Source: Candidatus Colwellbacteria bacterium CG10_big_fil_rev_8_21_14_0_10_42_22 (GTDB taxonomy: Bacteria; Patescibacteriota; Minisyncoccia; UBA6257; Colwellbacteraceae). Taken from it: a stretch of DNA of 64,000 bases. The notes under the pieces were generated by a model that was not told where the DNA came from, did not search any database, and worked only from the letters and a program-made list of their open reading frames with translations. The translations under genes were made by a program, and so were the position numbers. Where the stretch lies: contig PFAH01000007.1 in NCBI GenBank assembly GCA_002773725.1, positions 19,485 to 83,484 on the forward strand, written 5' to 3'. Below are positions 1,585 through 35,145 of this stretch, one piece after another; positions within the stretch are counted from its first letter, which is position 1; every line of letters begins with the position of its first letter.

Positions 1585-3113
1585 TGACAAGCTCTTCGGC
1601 TAAGATTTATTCAGCTGAACTGGAGGGTATAAACGCCAAACTGGTAGAAGTAGAGACCGACCTTAATGTCGGTCTTCATTCTTTTAATATCGTGGGGCTC
1701 GCCGACAAGGCGGTTTCTGAGGCAAAAGAAAGGGTTAGCTCTGCTATTAAAAATGCCGGTTTTAAACCACCTAATCGTGAAAACAGAAAGATCACAATCA
1801 ACTTGGCTCCTGCTGATCTGAAAAAAGCCGGCACCCAATATGATTTAGCGATTGCTGTTGGTTATCTTTGTGCCACTAAACAAATTAAATCCTTTAGTCC
1901 AGATGGATTGTTGTTTTTTGGTGAACTGGCCCTAGATGGCAGGGTTCGAAAAATACCGGGCGGGTTAAACACGGCCCTTTTGGCCAAAGAGTTGGGTAAA
2001 AAGGAACTCTATCTTCCAACAGAGAACGCCAAGGAGGCAAGTTGTGTATCGGACATTGGAGTTGTTCCCATTAATAGTTTGTCTGAATTGGTCAATCATC
2101 TTGAAGGAGTTAAAACCATTGCCCCTCACCCATATCGAGAATACGCTCCCACCAACACATCTTCCGTGAACATAGATGACGTAAAGGGTCAGGCATTTGC
2201 TAAACGCGCCTTAGTTATAGCGGCCAGTGGAGGACACAACATTTTAATGATTGGTCCACCGGGGTCAGGCAAAACAATGTTGGCCAATTCCATCGTGTCC
2301 ATATTGCCACCCATGGACTTAGATGAAGCGCTCGAGGTCTCGAGAATTTGGAGCTCTGTTGGACTTTTGAAAGGGTCTTTGGTTAATGAACGGCCTTTTA
2401 GGGCTCCCCACCAAACGGCATCTCCAGCATCTGTCATGGGAGGAGGAGCGTCTCCTCGAGCGGGTGAAATAAGTTTGGCCCACAGGGGGGTATTGTTTCT
2501 GGATGAGCTTCCGGAATTCAGAAGAGATTTATTAGAATCTCTTCGTCAACCCATAGAGTCCGGCGAAGTGGTCATATCAAGGGTTAGTAATAATATTTCT
2601 TTTCCCGCTAAATTTATGCTAGTAACAGCAATGAATCCGTGTCCCTGCGGATTTTATGAGGATGTGGAGAAAGAATGTGTTTGTAGTGCCAACGAAGTTT
2701 TTAGATATCAAAAGAGAATATCGGGGCCTCTCTTGGATAGAATTGATATTCAGATAGATGTTCCTCGTCTTAAGCTGGACGACTTAAACGCGCCCACAAA
2801 CATCGGCGAGGGAGAGAATTTACAAAAACAAGTTAACGAGGCGCGACTCATTCAAAAAGCACGTTTTGCTTGGGCTGGCATCAACGCCAAAATCAATTCA
2901 GAGATGAGCTCTCGGGAGTGTGAGGATATTATTTCTATAACAAAAGAGGGGAAAGATTTTATTAAAAGTGTTTTTGATAAATCTCTACTTTCTACGCGCA
3001 GTTATTATCGTCTTTTAAAGACGGCCCAAACTATCGCTGATTTAGAAAAGAGCGAAGTAGTTGACGCCCCTCATCTTGCAGAAGCGTTCCAATTTAGAAT
3101 TAGGGGGAAATAG
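1581..3113 (+). CDS. comM: YifB/ComM-family Mg-chelatase-like AAA+ ATPase
   Basis: Lon-like N-domain, Walker A GPPGSGKTM and the LFLDELPEF box are all characteristic of YifB/ComM. Confidence 0.85.
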   Translation: MMTSSSAKIYSAELEGINAKLVEVETDLNVGLHSFNIVGLADKAVSEAKERVSSAIKNAGFKPPNRENRKITINLAPADLKKAGTQYDLAIAVGYLCATKQIKSFSPDGLLFFGELALDGRVRKIPGGLNTALLAKELGKKELYLPTENAKEASCVSDIGVVPINSLSELVNHLEGVKTIAPHPYREYAPTNTSSVNIDDVKGQAFAKRALVIAASGGHNILMIGPPGSGKTMLANSIVSILPPMDLDEALEVSRIWSSVGLLKGSLVNERPFRAPHQTASPASVMGGGASPRAGEISLAHRGVLFLDELPEFRRDLLESLRQPIESGEVVISRVSNNISFPAKFMLVTAMNPCPCGFYEDVEKECVCSANEVFRYQKRISGPLLDRIDIQIDVPRLKLDDLNAPTNIGEGENLQKQVNEARLIQKARFAWAGINAKINSEMSSRECEDIISITKEGKDFIKSVFDKSLLSTRSYYRLLKTAQTIADLEKSEVVDAPHLAEAFQFRIRGK

Positions 3114-3164: not shown

Positions 3165-3692
3165 TCATTGAGGCGGAATTGAACAAATGTTGGGCAATGT
3201 CCGGTGACGCTCCGCAAAGTCGAGTCCGTACCCGACCACCCAAACATCCGGAATCTCAAACCCAACATAGTCGAGCCCGTTCTCAACCCGCTTGCGCGCC
3301 GGTTTGTGCAACAACGTGCACGTCCGGAGCGAACGTGGTCCGCGCGCCTCAAAAAGACGCGTGAGATATAGCAGAGTGTGTCCGGTATCGACGATGTCCT
3401 CAACAATCAGGACATCTGCATTGGCGATGTCGTGACGTACGTCCATCACCAATTTGACCCGCCCGGCCTCGTCGCTCTCCTTATCGCCATACGAGGAAAC
3501 GGCGATGAACTCGATGCGATGAGGCACCGTCAAGGCACGAGCCAAATCGGACAAGAAGATGAACGATCCCTTCAAAACGCCCACCAAGACAAGCTCTCTC
3601 GAAGAAACGTATTGCTGGTCAATCTCGGTCGCCAAGGAGGCAACTCTCTTGGCGATTTCTTGCGCAGACAACAACTCTCTCGGTTGTTCCAT
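3165..3692 (-). CDS. hpt: Hypoxanthine-guanine phosphoribosyltransferase
   Basis: PRTase motif VLIVEDIVDTGHTL and overall HPRT-like sequence. The gene is about 57% GC against roughly 40% flanks. Confidence 0.85.
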   Translation of the reverse strand: MEQPRELLSAQEIAKRVASLATEIDQQYVSSRELVLVGVLKGSFIFLSDLARALTVPHRIEFIAVSSYGDKESDEAGRVKLVMDVRHDIANADVLIVEDIVDTGHTLLYLTRLFEARGPRSLRTCTLLHKPARKRVENGLDYVGFEIPDVWVVGYGLDFAERHRTLPNICSIPPQ

Positions 3693-3908: not shown

Positions 3909-4742
3909 TTATCTGGCAAATGGATTAGACATCCCCGAAACCCCAAAGTGAACATGACATCCGGTTGAACCATGTGTCATGCCCGTATTGCCAACACGAG
4001 CAATTTGTTCACCTTGCTCCACCCCGTCTCCAACCTCAACTAAGTTTTCTGAGTTGTGAGAATAAAGCGTTCTGGAACCATTGGCATGGCTTATTAATAT
4101 ATACCCCCCATATCCTTGGTTATATAAATCAACGCTTCCTACTCTCAAAACCTTACCGGAAGCAGCGGCATAAATCGGCGATCCACACGCCTTTCCAATG
4201 TCAACAGCCGGCATGTAGCTAGTGTCGTGAAGTTGTCCCCAGTTCCAGCCACCATCTACTGGCCTTATAAAGTATCCGTCATTAGCGGGTGGCGTTTCGG
4301 ATTCTGTGCTTTTGACCACAGATCCGGAAGTTGATACGGGCAAAATAACTAACTCTTCGCCAGGTTTTATTAAGCTCGTGCCTTTGTCATTAGCTGATTT
4401 AATATTGTTAACAGACAAGCCAAAGGCAGAGGCAATACTTGAGAGGGTGTCACCGTCTTTGACAACATATGTTAATAATTCGTCCGAGCGGGCCTCGTAT
4501 TCGCCAAATGGGTTATCTTCCCCCGAGAGAGACCCTCTTTCGACTAATACGAATCCGCCAAAATCCTCGTAGGCTCCTTCGTGGTCTATCTCTGTTGTTG
4601 GTCCTGCATCGCCAAGAAATGCCCCTCCGTACGCCTGTCCAATCAAATCGTTTGCTATAAATTCGGGGTCTGGAAGAGGCGCTTGGTTTGCCAACCTAAA
4701 AAAGGCCAGATCGGCCATTATTATTCCCAAAACTATTATCAC
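3909..4742 (-). CDS. LysM-domain M23-family peptidase
   Basis: N-terminal TM segment, a LysM motif (DTLSSIASAFGLSVNNIKSAN) and a C-terminal M23 motif (HVHFGV). Confidence 0.8.
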   Translation of the reverse strand: MIIVLGIIMADLAFFRLANQAPLPDPEFIANDLIGQAYGGAFLGDAGPTTEIDHEGAYEDFGGFVLVERGSLSGEDNPFGEYEARSDELLTYVVKDGDTLSSIASAFGLSVNNIKSANDKGTSLIKPGEELVILPVSTSGSVVKSTESETPPANDGYFIRPVDGGWNWGQLHDTSYMPAVDIGKACGSPIYAAASGKVLRVGSVDLYNQGYGGYILISHANGSRTLYSHNSENLVEVGDGVEQGEQIARVGNTGMTHGSTGCHVHFGVSGMSNPFAR

Positions 4743-30795: not shown

Positions 30796-31305
30796 ATGCA
30801 AAAACGAGAAAAAATAACAAAAGAATATGTTCTTGGCATCGTTGAAAGCGAAGGAAGATTCACTTTTTCTACCAGAACAAGGAAATTGGCCAACAAAACG
30901 GTTATTCAAACCAGGGTTCCTACGTTCTCAATAAACATGCACGAAGACAATAGAAATCTATTAGAGCTAGTCAAAAAACAAATGGGCTTAGAGAATAAGA
31001 TATATATCTATAAATCTAAGGATAAAGATGGTTATAATCGGGCTAAAAAAGCCCTTCTAATAGTTAGGGGGTACGGAGCTATTAAAAACATAGTAGTTCC
31101 ATATTTCTATGGACAACTTGTGGGCGGAAAAGCGATCCAATTTAAGCAATGGATAGAGAGAATGGGGGACGATCCACTGGTTGCGGACGGCTACGGACTT
31201 ATTTGTCGCCTGCACAAGAATGGATATTATGCTAAAAATCCTAAATTTTCCGACAACCTTGTAAAACGTGAAAAGTCGAAATCTCCAAAATCGACAAAAA
31301 CCTAG
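30796..31305 (+). CDS. Free-standing LAGLIDADG-type homing-endonuclease-like protein (single motif)
   Basis: KEYVLGIVESEGRF is a LAGLIDADG-like motif in the same N-terminal position as in I-CreI. The 169-aa length matches the homodimeric class. Confidence 0.45.
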   Translation: MQKREKITKEYVLGIVESEGRFTFSTRTRKLANKTVIQTRVPTFSINMHEDNRNLLELVKKQMGLENKIYIYKSKDKDGYNRAKKALLIVRGYGAIKNIVVPYFYGQLVGGKAIQFKQWIERMGDDPLVADGYGLICRLHKNGYYAKNPKFSDNLVKREKSKSPKSTKT

Positions 31306-31427
31306 TGTTTAAGCGCCAACCCGGTTCTTCGCAATTGTGAAGAAGCTGTGAAAAAGACCACGTATATACTAATTAGTCAATAAAACTGTTAGGAAACTGT
31401 GCAAAATGCCTTAATACGGAAGGTAAA

Positions 31428-31450
31428 CGGCAATGGATATGCCATTGCCG
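31428..31450. promoter_or_regulatory. Inverted repeat cggcaatgg-atatg-ccattgccg, candidate operator upstream of the DGR target promoter
   Basis: 9-bp perfect arms read from the sequence. Identical 10-mers GGAAACTGTG also sit at 31392 and 31461. Confidence 0.35.
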
Positions 31451-31533
31451 AATAACTTGTGGAAACTGTGGATTACTTCGCAACTGTACCCTTACCACAT
31501 AATCTCCGATCTCTAGGAAAAAGTATCAGATAG

Positions 31534-31562
31534 TTGACAAATAATCATTAATGTGATATTCT
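31534..31562 (+). promoter_or_regulatory. Sigma70-like promoter for the DGR target gene
   Basis: Perfect -35 TTGACA (31534-31539), 17-nt spacer, extended -10 tgaTATTCT. A 13-bp-stem hairpin at 31610-31655 lies in the 5' UTR. RBS aaggaga sits 7 nt before the ATG at 31687. Confidence 0.45.
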
Positions 31563-31686
31563 ACACACTGTAGAAGATCGTACCTTAACTTCGCTACTTG
31601 CATATATCTGTTGCAGCTTTTATTGGATAATCTCTTGTCCCATAAAAGCTGCAACAGGGCAGCTCAACAAGAAAAGGAGAATCGTC

Positions 31687-32274
31687 ATGGCTATCAAGGT
31701 CACCGGCGGTCTGTACGAGTCGCTGATGCGACAGATTGCCGAGATCATGCGGCAGATCCACCAACCCGGTGGTTACCCGTTCGATCCGGCTCGTCTTCAC
31801 CAGGGGCTCCAGCGTCTCATCGAGGGTTTGATGGACAGCGCGGCCTCTGCTACCTACCCCATCACTGTGGACTACGGCCTCTCGGTCGAAGCCATGGTGA
31901 AGGCCGGTCGGTACGACTGGGTGAACGACTACATCACATCTCGCAACTTTCCCACCAAGAAGAAGGGGAAGAAGCAGGTCGTGGTGGAGTTGATCCACCT
32001 CAACCGTTCCGTCTCGACAGACGACGCGCTCAAGGAACTCGACAAGATGGGCATGAGGCCCGCCGAGCTTCACGAGCTTCTCGCGCTCGGTCAGATGTAC
32101 CCCGAGCTCCAGCGGGAATTCCCCGTGGTTGCTCTTGGTTCCGTCTGGCAGAACCCGAACGGCAATCGCTACGTTTCGTACCTCAGCAGGGACGATTCGG
32201 AGCGGAACCTGTACCTCGACTGGTTCGAGGTCGACTGGTACGGGTTCTTTCGCTTCGCTGCCGTCCGCAAGTAG
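31687..32274 (+). CDS. DGR target (variable) protein, probable C-type-lectin/FGE-like fold with C-terminal VR
   Basis: 195 aa, good RBS, about 60% GC. The C-terminus ...WQNPNGNRYVSYLSRDDSERNLYLDWFEVDWYGFFRFAAVRK ends in a GFxRxA-like CLec motif and contains the VR. Confidence 0.8.
   Translation: MAIKVTGGLYESLMRQIAEIMRQIHQPGGYPFDPARLHQGLQRLIEGLMDSAASATYPITVDYGLSVEAMVKAGRYDWVNDYITSRNFPTKKKGKKQVVVELIHLNRSVSTDDALKELDKMGMRPAELHELLALGQMYPELQREFPVVALGSVWQNPNGNRYVSYLSRDDSERNLYLDWFEVDWYGFFRFAAVRK
32135..32269 (+). repeat. DGR variable repeat (VR)
   Basis: 135 bp aligning with the TR at 32597-32731. There are 14 differences and every one corresponds to an adenine in the TR (A->G or A->T). Confidence 0.85.
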
Positions 32275-32313
32275 CTGGTCCTTGGGACCTTTGCCCTTTG
32301 GACTCCGAAAGGG

Positions 32314-32345
32314 AAGCCTCCGGTGTGTTCGCACACCGGAGGCTT
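32314..32345 (+). terminator. Strong hairpin 45 nt after the VR (14-bp stem, UUCG tetraloop). Intrinsic terminator and/or DGR target-recognition hairpin.
   Basis: aagcctccggtgtg-ttcg-cacaccggaggctt followed by ttgcgtttc. Confidence 0.7.
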
Positions 32346-32596
32346 TTGCGTTTCTAATTGGGAAGATACAATCAAAGAGGATAGTAGGTGTGTGTGCGTA
32401 AGGTTAAGGCTTTGCGCCATCGAATTCCGGATCTTGGAAATCGGAATGTGGAAAGTTAAACTCTCCCCATAATGTATTTCTTTGTATCCTTAAAAATGAA
32501 GCTACTTGGTGCAAGATATTAAGGAACTTTAGATTCCGGATAAGATACAACCCTAAGAGTATTCAAGGGGTGGTGGCATAGATGATATTTTGTACA

Positions 32597-32731
32597 TTGG
32601 TTCCGTCTGGCAGAACCCGAACGGCAATCACAACGTTTCGTACCTCAACAGGAACGATTCGAAGCGGAACCTGAACCTCAACTGGATCGAGAACGACTGG
32701 AACGAGATCTATCGCTTCGCTGCCGTCCGCA
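32597..32731 (+). repeat. DGR template repeat (TR)
   Basis: Adenine-containing copy of the VR, rich in AAC codons. Followed by an 8-bp-stem hairpin plus T-run at 32747-32775. Confidence 0.85.
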
Positions 32732-32754
32732 GCTCGCTTCGTTTTTCTCCACCG

Positions 32755-33153
32755 CTAGTCGGTGGAGTTTTCTTTTGAAAGTTGTCTCAACCAACCACCG
32801 AGCATTTTTCCTATCTCGTTAAGTTTTTCTGATAAAGCGATATATTTTTTGTTATCGAGTGCTTTTATCTCCCAGGCAATTTGTAAGAAAAATTTGAGCA
32901 AATCTAGTTTCATAATAGCCTGCCGAACGTAAGGAACCTTCTGAGTTTTATAAAACTGACTTGCAAGAAGCGCGGATTCCATGACCTCTATGAGTAGTAA
33001 ATCTATTCTCTCACCCAATGTATATCTAGAAGTTTTTGAAAAGTGAGGCAAGAAGTTATGCCATACTTTATACGCATCAATGAGCTTTTGGATTACAGGT
33101 AAAGCCCCAGCTGGAGCAACGCGAGATTTCTTATGAGAATGAAGTTTATCCAT
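32755..33153 (-). CDS. avd: Avd-like accessory variability determinant (four-helix-bundle protein)
   Basis: 132 aa. The pattern ...LLKFFLQIAWEI...KLNEIGKMLGGWLRQL resembles Bordetella phage Avd/TIGR02436. Its strand is opposite to the RT. Confidence 0.7.
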   Translation of the reverse strand: MDKLHSHKKSRVAPAGALPVIQKLIDAYKVWHNFLPHFSKTSRYTLGERIDLLLIEVMESALLASQFYKTQKVPYVRQAIMKLDLLKFFLQIAWEIKALDNKKYIALSEKLNEIGKMLGGWLRQLSKENSTD

Positions 33154-34170
33154 ACATTCGAAGACATTATTGGGCTTGAAAATCTACTGGAGGCGTGGGG
33201 AGAATTTGTGAAAGGAAAACGTGGGAAACATGATGTGCAAGAATTTTCACTTCACTTAATGGACAATATTTTCAAGCTTCACGCTGAGCTTTTGCATCAT
33301 ACCTATAGGCACGGCGGGTATCAAGCATTTAATATCTGCGATCCCAAACCGAGAAATATCCATAAAGCGAGAGTGCGTGATAGATTGCTCCACCACGCGA
33401 TTCACAGAAAGCTTTATCCATTTTTTGATAAGATTTTTATTCAGGATTCGTACTCTTGCCGCGTTGATAAAGGAACACATAAGGCACTTAACCGATTCAG
33501 AAATTTTGCTTATAAAGTGAGTAAAAACAATACGAGGGCGTGCTGGGTGTTGAAGTGCGATATAAGAAAATTTTTCGCGAATATTAACCACACAACTTTG
33601 ATGAAAATTCTACAAAAATATATTAGAGATAAAGATATTATTTGGCTTCTTGAGGAAGTGATAGAAAGCTTTTCTGTTGGAAGAATTGATGTTGGTCTGC
33701 CATTGGGGAACCTAACCTCACAACTTTTTGTGAATGTGTATATGAATGAATTTGATCAATTTGCTAAACACAGGTTGAAGGCAAGGTATTATATCCGCTA
33801 CGCAGATGACTTTGTATTACTTTCAGAAAACAAAGAATTATTGAGAAAACAAATAAACCTAATTGGAATTTTTTTGAAAGAGAAGTTATCTCTTGAATTA
33901 CATCCACACAAAGTTTCTATTAAATCACTGGCCTCTGGAATCGATTTTTTGGGTTGGGTTCATTTCTCGGATCATAGGGTGCTGAGGACACAAACGAAAC
34001 GAAGGGTAATAAGGCGTGTAAGAGCACATCCTACACCAGAAACTTTTAACTCATACCTGGGACTTCTGCGTCATGGGAATACGTATAAGATCAGATTGGG
34101 AATCCAAAGGACATTTATTCTTTCTGGGGGTGTTCCCAATAATGTTGACGAAGATCTTAGTGGAGCCTAG
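33133..34170 (+). CDS. DGR-type reverse transcriptase
   Basis: The N-terminus aligns with Brt (ENLLEAW...GKRGK). DGR-specific motif LPLGNLTSQLFVNVY and catalytic YADDFV are present. Confidence 0.9.
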   Translation: MRMKFIHTFEDIIGLENLLEAWGEFVKGKRGKHDVQEFSLHLMDNIFKLHAELLHHTYRHGGYQAFNICDPKPRNIHKARVRDRLLHHAIHRKLYPFFDKIFIQDSYSCRVDKGTHKALNRFRNFAYKVSKNNTRACWVLKCDIRKFFANINHTTLMKILQKYIRDKDIIWLLEEVIESFSVGRIDVGLPLGNLTSQLFVNVYMNEFDQFAKHRLKARYYIRYADDFVLLSENKELLRKQINLIGIFLKEKLSLELHPHKVSIKSLASGIDFLGWVHFSDHRVLRTQTKRRVIRRVRAHPTPETFNSYLGLLRHGNTYKIRLGIQRTFILSGGVPNNVDEDLSGA

Positions 34171-35145
34171 AATTCCCAAAAGAAACGTTAGAATAAGGAT
34201 GAAGAAAATAAACTTTGTTGAACTTTTGAAGAAGGTAATAAAACATCGACTAGGCGTAAAAACCGCTCCCTGTCGTTGTGTCGATTGTTATAGTGGAAAA
34301 CAAAGCCGTCCAAGTAAGTCTGTAGATACTTCTTCGAAATAACCTTGTGGGTGCCCTTGGTGCTTCTTTTAACGTGAGACCAAAAAGATTCTAGAGTATT
34401 CGTATGAATATCGCCTTTTACAAACTCTTTTAGGTTGTGCTGAACTGTGTGGCGGTGGTATCCAATAGCAACCTTATCGTATCTATTGCTCTCATCAGTT
34501 AATAAACGCTTATTCAAGACAGGGTTTACGTTCCGATCTAGGAAGCTACCAATAGTCTTTGCCCTATCGTTTGGCGAGACTTCTGCTCTCATTTCACCGC
34601 CTCGCTCAACCGCTCCGATAATGACGGACTTGTTTTGCATAGCTTGGCTACGATTTAGGTTTTGTACTCCACCCCTTTTTCGTCCGCCATACCAAGTCTC
34701 ATCCATTTCTACATCGCCTTCTAGAAATCTTTTGTCTTGCACTAAAGACTTGCGGATGAAGTGGAGCATACGCCACGCTGTTTTATAGGTAACGCCTAGT
34801 TGTCGTTCGACCTCTTTAGCTGAAATACCGCTTTTAGCGTTAGAAAATAGGAGGATAGTATAAAACCACAAGTTAAGAGGTGTGGCGCTCTTATGGAAGA
34901 TTGTGCCCGCAGTGGGGGCTATCTGGAACCTACACTTAGAGCATTGAAACTGTCGTCTATCTTTGAGTAAGGAGTAGTCGCCACCACAAGAACACTTACG
35001 AGAATGTAGGGTGTCGAATATGAAGTCTAGGCAATTCTTTTCTGTGCCAAAATCCTTCTTTAAGTCCCTAATTCCATACTTATCTATTTGAGCCATACCC
35101 TTATTATAAGGTATGCTAATTATGTTGTCAAGGGATAGGCGTGGA
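34171..35145 (-). mobile_element. Putative IS1595-family insertion sequence; ends not defined
   Basis: The transposase gene fills the whole gap between the RT stop (34170) and the uppS stop (35146). No terminal inverted repeats could be identified by eye. Confidence 0.35.
34188..35096 (-). CDS. IS1595-family transposase
   Basis: N-terminal zinc ribbon (CSCGG...CSKC), DDE region (DETWYGG) and C-terminal YLDGFVFHYNNRHN. Confidence 0.8.
   Translation of the reverse strand: MAQIDKYGIRDLKKDFGTEKNCLDFIFDTLHSRKCSCGGDYSLLKDRRQFQCSKCRFQIAPTAGTIFHKSATPLNLWFYTILLFSNAKSGISAKEVERQLGVTYKTAWRMLHFIRKSLVQDKRFLEGDVEMDETWYGGRKRGGVQNLNRSQAMQNKSVIIGAVERGGEMRAEVSPNDRAKTIGSFLDRNVNPVLNKRLLTDESNRYDKVAIGYHRHTVQHNLKEFVKGDIHTNTLESFWSHVKRSTKGTHKVISKKYLQTYLDGFVFHYNNRHNDRERFLRLVDVLLPSSKVQQSLFSSSLF

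Follow-up and report, generated by a model that had tools for sequence, protein, structure and literature searches.

A complete diversity-generating retroelement in Candidatus Colwellbacteria with the reversed avd typical of Candidate Phyla Radiation bacteria and head-to-head avd and reverse transcriptase starts

The prototype diversity-generating retroelement (DGR), that of Bordetella phage BPP-1, carries its components in the order mtd-avd-TR-brt, all on one strand, where TR is the template repeat and brt encodes the reverse transcriptase (RT). The functional RNA includes the 140-nt non-coding spacer that separates TR from brt. For this phage element, adenine-mutagenic copying of the TR and replacement of the variable repeat (VR) have been established. 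A different arrangement is described for bacteria of the Candidate Phyla Radiation (CPR): passages of Wu et al. define an architecture B3, TR-(avd)-RT, in which avd lies on the reverse strand and which accounts for 90% of their CPR DGR set (Wu et al., 2018, Nucleic Acids Res 46:11, PMC5758913). Here we describe a DGR in a 64,000-nt stretch of contig PFAH01000007.1 of Candidatus Colwellbacteria, a CPR bacterium. We call this whole stretch the window; all coordinates refer to it, and its plus strand is the strand of TR and RT. With a probability of roughly 0.9, the window contains a complete, apparently functional DGR with the CPR-typical B3 layout.

Along the plus strand, the locus consists of a target gene with a C-terminal VR, a GC-rich hairpin, the TR, a second hairpin followed by a U-run, avd on the opposite strand, and the RT gene. 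The target gene (31687..32274, +; 195 aa in the open reading frame (ORF) listing) contains the VR (32135..32276, +; 142 nt), which ends at its stop codon and is 88% identical to the TR (32597..32738, +) with which it pairs as a repeat. The two repeats differ at 17 positions. Fourteen of the mismatches are opposite TR adenines, and the other three are at the extreme 3' end, the border of homology, leaving all internal mismatches (14/14) at TR adenines. A 19-nt stretch, CGCTTCGCTGCCGTCCGCA, is the same in TR and VR and forms a GC-rich 3' segment which resembles the initiation of mutagenic homology (IMH) sequence. Downstream of the VR, a GC-rich hairpin of 15 bp (32313..32346, +) has a predicted RNA folding energy of -30.3 kcal/mol (z -4.96). 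Judged by position only, it may be the counterpart of the target-side inverted repeat in the Bordetella and Legionella DGRs. Three features by which DGRs are recognized were found: an RT of the DGR clade, an adenine-specific TR/VR pair, and a VR in the target gene with an inverted repeat downstream.

The RT gene (33133..34170, +; 345 aa) is read from the ATG at 33133, with an alternative start at 33139. Its product matches RVT_1 (E 8e-24), and the YADD box and an LGNLTSQ motif are present in the translation. The closest solved relative is the Bordetella DGR RT (8ub7_A, E 2e-42), ahead of retron-type (2e-22) and group II intron (4e-22) enzymes. The avd gene (32755..33153, -; 132 aa) lies between TR and RT, with its ATG at 33153 and a TAG at 32757-32755. 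The Avd protein scores above the threshold of the Pfam family bAvd, PF22296 (E 2e-13, 51.1 bits, cutoff 40). An AlphaFold model built on a 27-sequence alignment (predicted local distance difference test, pLDDT, 86.9) has four helices over residues 17-128 and a disordered segment at residues 1-16. In a Foldseek search, this model matched Bordetella Avd (8ub7 chains B-E, 4dwl) with a probability of 1.00 and TM scores of 0.72-0.77 for the query and 0.83-0.88 for the target, placing it among the 23S-rRNA-IVS/Avd four-helix bundles. The database search gave 886 Avd homologues, and one hypothetical protein, from Candidatus Colwellbacteria CG10 (CPR), matches the window Avd at 100% identity. The ORF is intact and, in the protein alignment, retains all 21 invariant residues of the family.

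The relatives of this locus show how common its arrangement is. We scanned one genome per species (GTDB) and obtained 80 loci encoding Avd relatives, almost all of them in Patescibacteria/CPR records. A metagenome scan for G8...ATGAAAATTCAATTG gave at least 120 avd/RT junctions (L081-L200), and the frame counts below were made on 105 of those. The RT gene is on the opposite strand, upstream of and divergent from avd, in 76/76 genome loci with an RT match; in three of the four genome loci without one, avd is at a contig end. In 72 of these 76 loci, no more than about 60 nt separate the RT N-terminus from the Avd 5' end; in a further one, L001, the distance is about 140 nt. The metagenome junctions, at least 120 in number, all have the same avd/RT layout, and no co-oriented avd was seen among the closest CPR relatives (the 76 loci with an RT match). 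The TR was located in about 63 related loci, where it shows adenine-specific mismatches, lies on the RT strand and mostly ends 0-40 nt short of the avd stop; the VR is 450-550 nt further upstream of the TR.

A first-pass annotation, made from the sequence of the locus, had noticed the reversed avd and proposed either an internal inversion or a non-standard DGR architecture; evidence for a pseudogene was listed as one thing that would refute it. The geometry it recorded is correct. The minus-strand avd is an intact ORF with Pfam and fold support at the coordinates given there, its start overlaps the divergent RT start by about 20 bp (21 nt by direct reading, or 15 nt from 33139), its stop codon is in the hairpin and T-run past the TR, and the layout does differ from the co-oriented avd-TR-brt order of the Bordetella prototype. 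These two interpretations did not survive comparison with the relatives, which share the reversed layout as a common known variant, the very outcome that the annotation had named as refuting its proposal. The contrast with the Bordetella prototype is the one point in favor of a local inversion that flipped avd in this genome, or of a decaying pseudogene on the minus strand. Against both stand the same orientation in 76/76 related loci with an RT match and at least 120 metagenome junctions, the description of this architecture as predominant in CPR bacteria in passages of Wu et al. (2018, PMC5758913), and an intact ORF with 21 invariant residues and a confident four-helix model. Since the divergent pair, the TR at the avd stop and a TR-strand hairpin are conserved across the family, the layout is the standard one, and we consider inversion and pseudogene excluded with a confidence close to certainty.

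The reversed avd is an already described, standard CPR DGR layout and does not define a new DGR class. The window has the order TR, avd, RT with avd reversed, no further accessory gene, and a CPR host. Compared with B3 as given in passages of Wu et al. (2018, PMC5758913), it agrees in the order and strands of TR, avd and RT, in the CPR host, and in the upstream target gene with VR, and there is no difference in layout. The architecture that was first thought non-standard is thus the one assigned there to 90% of CPR DGRs. For the window this amounts to a clarification, and neither an inversion nor a new class of DGR should be claimed. The examined passages of Wu et al. do not mention the overlap of the starts, the hairpin past the TR, or repeats at the avd/RT junction.

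The window element and the BPP-1 element have an RT of the same clade (8ub7_A, E 2e-42) and the same four-helix Avd fold. In both, the TR/VR differences are adenine-specific, the VR occupies the 3' end of the target gene, and a GC-rich hairpin lies past the VR. They differ in that the Bordetella avd is upstream of the TR and on the same strand, whereas the 400 nt from TR to RT in the window encode avd on the other strand. A further difference is the terminator-like hairpin located 9 nt past the TR in the window. This element (32747..32776, +) consists of a hairpin at 32747-32767, with an 8-bp stem and a 5-nt loop, CTAGT, which contains the avd stop codon, and of TTTTCTTTT at 32768-32776. Folded as plus-strand RNA, the hairpin has an energy of -13.7 kcal/mol (z -3.65). 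A hairpin with a T-run is present on the TR strand in 49/64 relatives and on the avd strand in 3/64; random windows drawn from the same loci have one in 4.5% of cases. The stem sequences vary among the loci with pairing retained, often as CTCYCC...GGRGAG and then TTTTGTTTT, and the avd stop lies within the hairpin in 26 relatives. This strand-specific conservation indicates that the element belongs to the TR transcript and not to avd. It is likely a 3' structure of the TR transcript, most simply an intrinsic terminator, rather than a terminator of avd. The location directly past the TR implies a short, stand-alone TR RNA without the long non-coding spacer required by the Bordetella RNA. Such a short RNA would bear on the priming mechanism in the largest natural reservoir of DGRs.

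Inspection of the sequence shows that the coding starts of avd and RT overlap head to head at 33133..33153. Each start codon is the reverse complement of a CAT in the seventh codon position of the other gene, the avd ATG (33153-33151) of RT codon 7 (His) and the RT ATG of Avd codon 7. The ATG at 33153 is the sole ATG, GTG or TTG of the avd ORF ahead of residue 58. A 21-nt overlap with an in-frame ATG opposite RT codon 7 was found in 12 GTDB genome loci and, among the matches listed, in 24 of 105 metagenome loci. A 21-nt overlap with an in-frame start is also present in six contigs (L205-L210) from a single population. In one relative the His codon is CAC and the Avd start is GTG. Either His codon, CAT or CAC, therefore provides a valid Avd start on the opposite strand. 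The closest relative (88% identity) has ACG in place of the first RT ATG, so its RT must begin at the second ATG, with an overlap of 15 nt. Other relatives have overlaps of 2-24 nt or gaps of 0-18 nt; tight apposition is constant, the exact overlap is not. The start overlap is an inherited trait of a compact DGR family and involves no rearrangement.

The overlap also affects how these genes appear in public databases. Several database Avd proteins start with M-x-Q/K-L/F-N/H-F/S-H, the sequence obtained when the region encoding the RT N-terminus (M-K-I-Q-L-x-H) is read in antisense. The six contigs L205-L210 have identical DNA and are annotated either with an Avd of 139 aa and an RT of 333 aa or with an Avd of 120 aa (TTG start) and an RT of 351 aa. 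Evidently, Prodigal-type gene callers disallow a 5'-5' overlap of genes on opposite strands, so that one of the two public start calls is wrong. DGR surveys of CPR bacteria will consequently mis-set one of the two starts, that of avd or that of RT. Since identical DNA underlies the long and the short forms, a short database Avd is no evidence for an internal start.

Most relatives have a run of C on the avd strand (G on the RT strand) between the Avd core and the RT ATG. Runs of 8-12 nt are present at the junction in 58/80 genome loci, with only three runs of at least 8 nt elsewhere in 528,820 nt, and the runs at the metagenome junctions, at least 120 in number, are 8-13 nt long. An example is the junction poly-C run at 3990-4000 of L004. 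In the Avd frame the run reads Pro-Pro-Pro. At this site, where most relatives have the C8-13 run, the window has Avd codons 12-17 (33103..33120, -; GTT GCT CCA GCT GGG GCT), which read VAPAGA instead of PPP. There is no G or C run of 8 nt or more anywhere in the 64 kb of the window, and the simple repeat expected of phase variation is absent from it. Close relatives of the window have intermediate, interrupted runs. On the sequence comparison, the window element looks like a repeat-less, permanently in-frame version.

The run often leaves the Avd core out of frame with the sole upstream ATG. With the ATG opposite RT codon 7 as reference, 24 of 105 loci among the matches listed have the core in frame, 63 in the +1 frame and 18 in the +2 frame, and in 37 of the 105 the frame of the core lacks any ATG, GTG or TTG. 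The frame of the ATG opposite RT codon 7 has no stop before the run in 105/105 and 35/36 relatives, compared with 58 and 23 expected from shuffles. The three frame classes do not differ in the integrity or the conservation of the Avd core. An in-frame ATG is present in 14/14 tract-less relatives versus 17/57 tract-bearing ones (Fisher p 1e-6).

These data bear on where Avd translation begins. Avd might be translated from a non-ATG codon near residue 18-21 (e.g., ATC, codon 21), in which case residues 1-17 would be an untranslated leader and the two coding regions would not overlap. The Avd profile matches begin only at residue 18-21, residues 1-16 are predicted to be disordered, in relatives gene callers often choose a TTG or GTG corresponding to residue 17-18, and ATG 33153 is not preceded by a Shine-Dalgarno sequence. 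However, codons 2-57 of the window avd include no ATG, GTG or TTG. The open frame from the upstream ATG to the repeat position, found far more often than in the shuffles, and the retention of the upstream in-frame ATG in every tract-less relative point to use of that ATG. The 37 of 105 loci without a canonical start in the core frame indicate that an internal canonical start is no general solution, and the short and long database forms derive from identical DNA. We therefore regard a start further in, which the first-pass annotation had asked to be checked, as improbable, and prefer ATG 33153.

Run lengths were compared in assembled sequences of near-identical clusters (at least 99% identity). 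Of 13 clusters, 2 differ in run length and the other 11 are constant, as is the six-contig population. L054 and L056 have runs of 11 and 10 with no other difference in 1000 nt; L123 and L157 differ in run length and also by two mismatches and one gap. N-terminal differences within 90% protein clusters were also considered as repeat-length polymorphisms and were discarded, as the underlying DNA was identical and the differences were choices of the gene callers. Other simple repeats occupy related places. L033 has (CA)13 at 3975-4000, exactly at the position of the run and in frame (HTHTHTHT). The tract-less L067 and L079 have (AG)12 at 3413-3436 and (AG)15 at 16-45, respectively, inside the RT ORF just before motif 4, and in L067 the (AG)12 leaves the two halves of the RT in different frames. 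A second run, C14, is found in L052 at 3013-3026, where it marks the 3' end of the RT gene, roughly 1 kb away from the junction. The sequence on either side of it (ttaCCCC...gacgcttt) is similar to the avd/RT junction of other loci, and the run may be the remnant of a second cassette.

For the relatives, these observations suggest a repeat-based switch. The ATG or GTG opposite RT codon 7 (His, CAY) would be the conserved Avd start, and in most members a hypermutable repeat before the Avd core would set the frame, so that slipped-strand changes in its length switch or throttle Avd or RT and hence DGR mutagenesis; the window would be a repeat-less derivative. The 58 junction runs against three elsewhere, the open ATG frame, the contrast between tract-less and tract-bearing loci, the intact Avd cores in all frames, the L054/L056 and L123/L157 length differences, and the other repeats at the same functional spots support this proposal. 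On the sequences at hand, we consider it about equally likely to be right or wrong. Slippage of the ribosome (+1, on CCC-C) or of transcription may also play a part in the control by the repeat.

Contingency loci are the closest known parallel to such a switch. They include the poly-G/C tracts in genes of Campylobacter, Neisseria and Haemophilus, the poly-C in the Bordetella fim promoters, and the TA repeats between the divergent hifA and hifB. The likeness concerns the relatives only: C8-13 in an ORF that is open on both sides with a mixture of in-frame and out-of-frame states, two near-identical pairs with different run lengths, and (CA)13 or (AG)12-15 as alternative repeats. As differences, the window has no such repeat, and the run length is constant in 11/13 near-identical clusters and in the six-contig population. 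In addition, the frames are skewed to +1 (63/105 among the matches listed) instead of being even. If the proposal is true, stochastic on/off switching would govern the hypermutation machinery itself and add a new level to DGR regulation. In the literature searched, which did not include Paul et al. 2017, no paper linking DGRs or Avd with homopolymers was found.

Three other functions of the run were considered. A role of the G-run as the Shine-Dalgarno sequence of RT is unlikely; between the end of the run and the ATG there are 8-36 nt (mostly 16-22), and an AAAG(G/A)A distinct from the run is closer. The G-run as a promoter spacer is not supported, the following TTA-N3-G being unlike a -10 box. 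A prfB-like frameshift site was rejected, with the zero-frame stop found 2 to 208 nt past the run at no fixed position.

We propose the following working model for the window element. The TR would be transcribed as a short RNA ending at the hairpin and U-run, at about 32776. The avd and RT genes would be transcribed divergently, each with its promoter and 5' leader within the coding sequence of the other, and a candidate avd promoter is located at 33324-33296. Translation of Avd would begin at ATG 33153 and yield a disordered N-terminal extension of 16 residues, part of it encoded antisense to RT codons 1-7. The Avd-RT complex would then copy the TR RNA with adenine mutagenesis, and the cDNA would replace the VR. 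Mutagenic retrohoming in the window element is assumed here by homology with the Bordetella phage DGR.

The candidate avd promoter (33296..33324, -), TTGATA-17-TATGAT, is inside the RT ORF and is the sole minus-strand promoter-like site within 31500-34300 in the promoter-site scan. Sigma-70-like sites on the avd strand are concentrated at two fixed positions of the RT ORF, in 34/105 and 38/105 loci among the matches listed, compared with about 3.5 in shuffles. The window site falls in the first of these family-wide peaks (34/105 among the matches listed). The clustering may reflect avd promoters, or it may follow from the conservation of RT codons. No promoter for RT was found by the promoter-site scans.

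The first-pass annotation had also raised antisense-coupled regulation. In this reading the head-to-head overlap would serve regulation: the divergent avd and RT transcripts, antisense to each other, would interfere by collision or as an RNA duplex and so couple or balance the two proteins, which is compatible with the DGR described above. The geometry puts both 5' leaders inside the partner gene, the avd-strand promoter-like sites cluster 110-150 nt upstream of the avd ATG in the RT ORF, and the arrangement is kept across deep divergence. However, the promoter-like sites may only mirror conserved RT codons, and the gaps of 0-18 nt in some relatives mean that a coding overlap is not required. 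The compaction of small CPR genomes suffices as an explanation. A regulatory role of the overlap is conceivable, and we think it rather unlikely.

Several points weigh against a complete and functional DGR as described here. For the Avd assignment, the NCBIfam equivalog DivGenRetAVD (NF033474) gives 70.5 bits, below its cutoff of 80. A search of solved structures with the single Avd sequence returned nothing significant, and the 27-sequence profile reached 4dwl with a non-significant E of 0.4. For expression, no Shine-Dalgarno-like sequence was found upstream of the avd ATG, and the RT start is ambiguous between 33133 and 33139. Upstream of the TR, a scan of 65 loci for the sigma-70 consensus gave no positional peak and no conserved promoter. 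If the hairpin past the TR terminates efficiently, the source of RT transcription is unexplained. The transcript ends, the promoters and the initiation codons in use are predictions from sequence.

The surroundings of the locus were also inspected. Profile searches of the target gene (31687..32274) against Pfam and NCBIfam gave no match, and an Rfam scan of 31400-34400 gave no credible match. The window target gene has a GC content of 55-60% (31600-32300), compared with 36-40% in avd, RT and the flanks. In related loci it is likewise the body of the target gene and not the VR alone that is GC-rich, with a family median of 52% versus 36% and a difference above 5 points in 53/59 loci. The DGR is flanked by ordinary chromosomal genes, Fpg, S20 and UppS, and by a LAGLIDADG ORF and an IS1595 transposase. 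The free-standing LAGLIDADG endonuclease ORF (30796-31305, +; Pfam E 1e-7) is about 380 nt upstream of the target gene. The IS1595-family transposase (34188-35096, -; NCBIfam 175.7 bits) begins 18 nt past the RT stop and is convergent with RT. With these two genes at either side, the DGR cassette is flanked by two mobile-element genes. In L204 and L134, a related cassette of target gene, TR, avd and RT is located within a ribosomal protein operon, between S8 and L6, in agreement with passages of Wu et al. (2018, PMC5758913) in which some CPR DGRs are interleaved with ribosomal protein genes.

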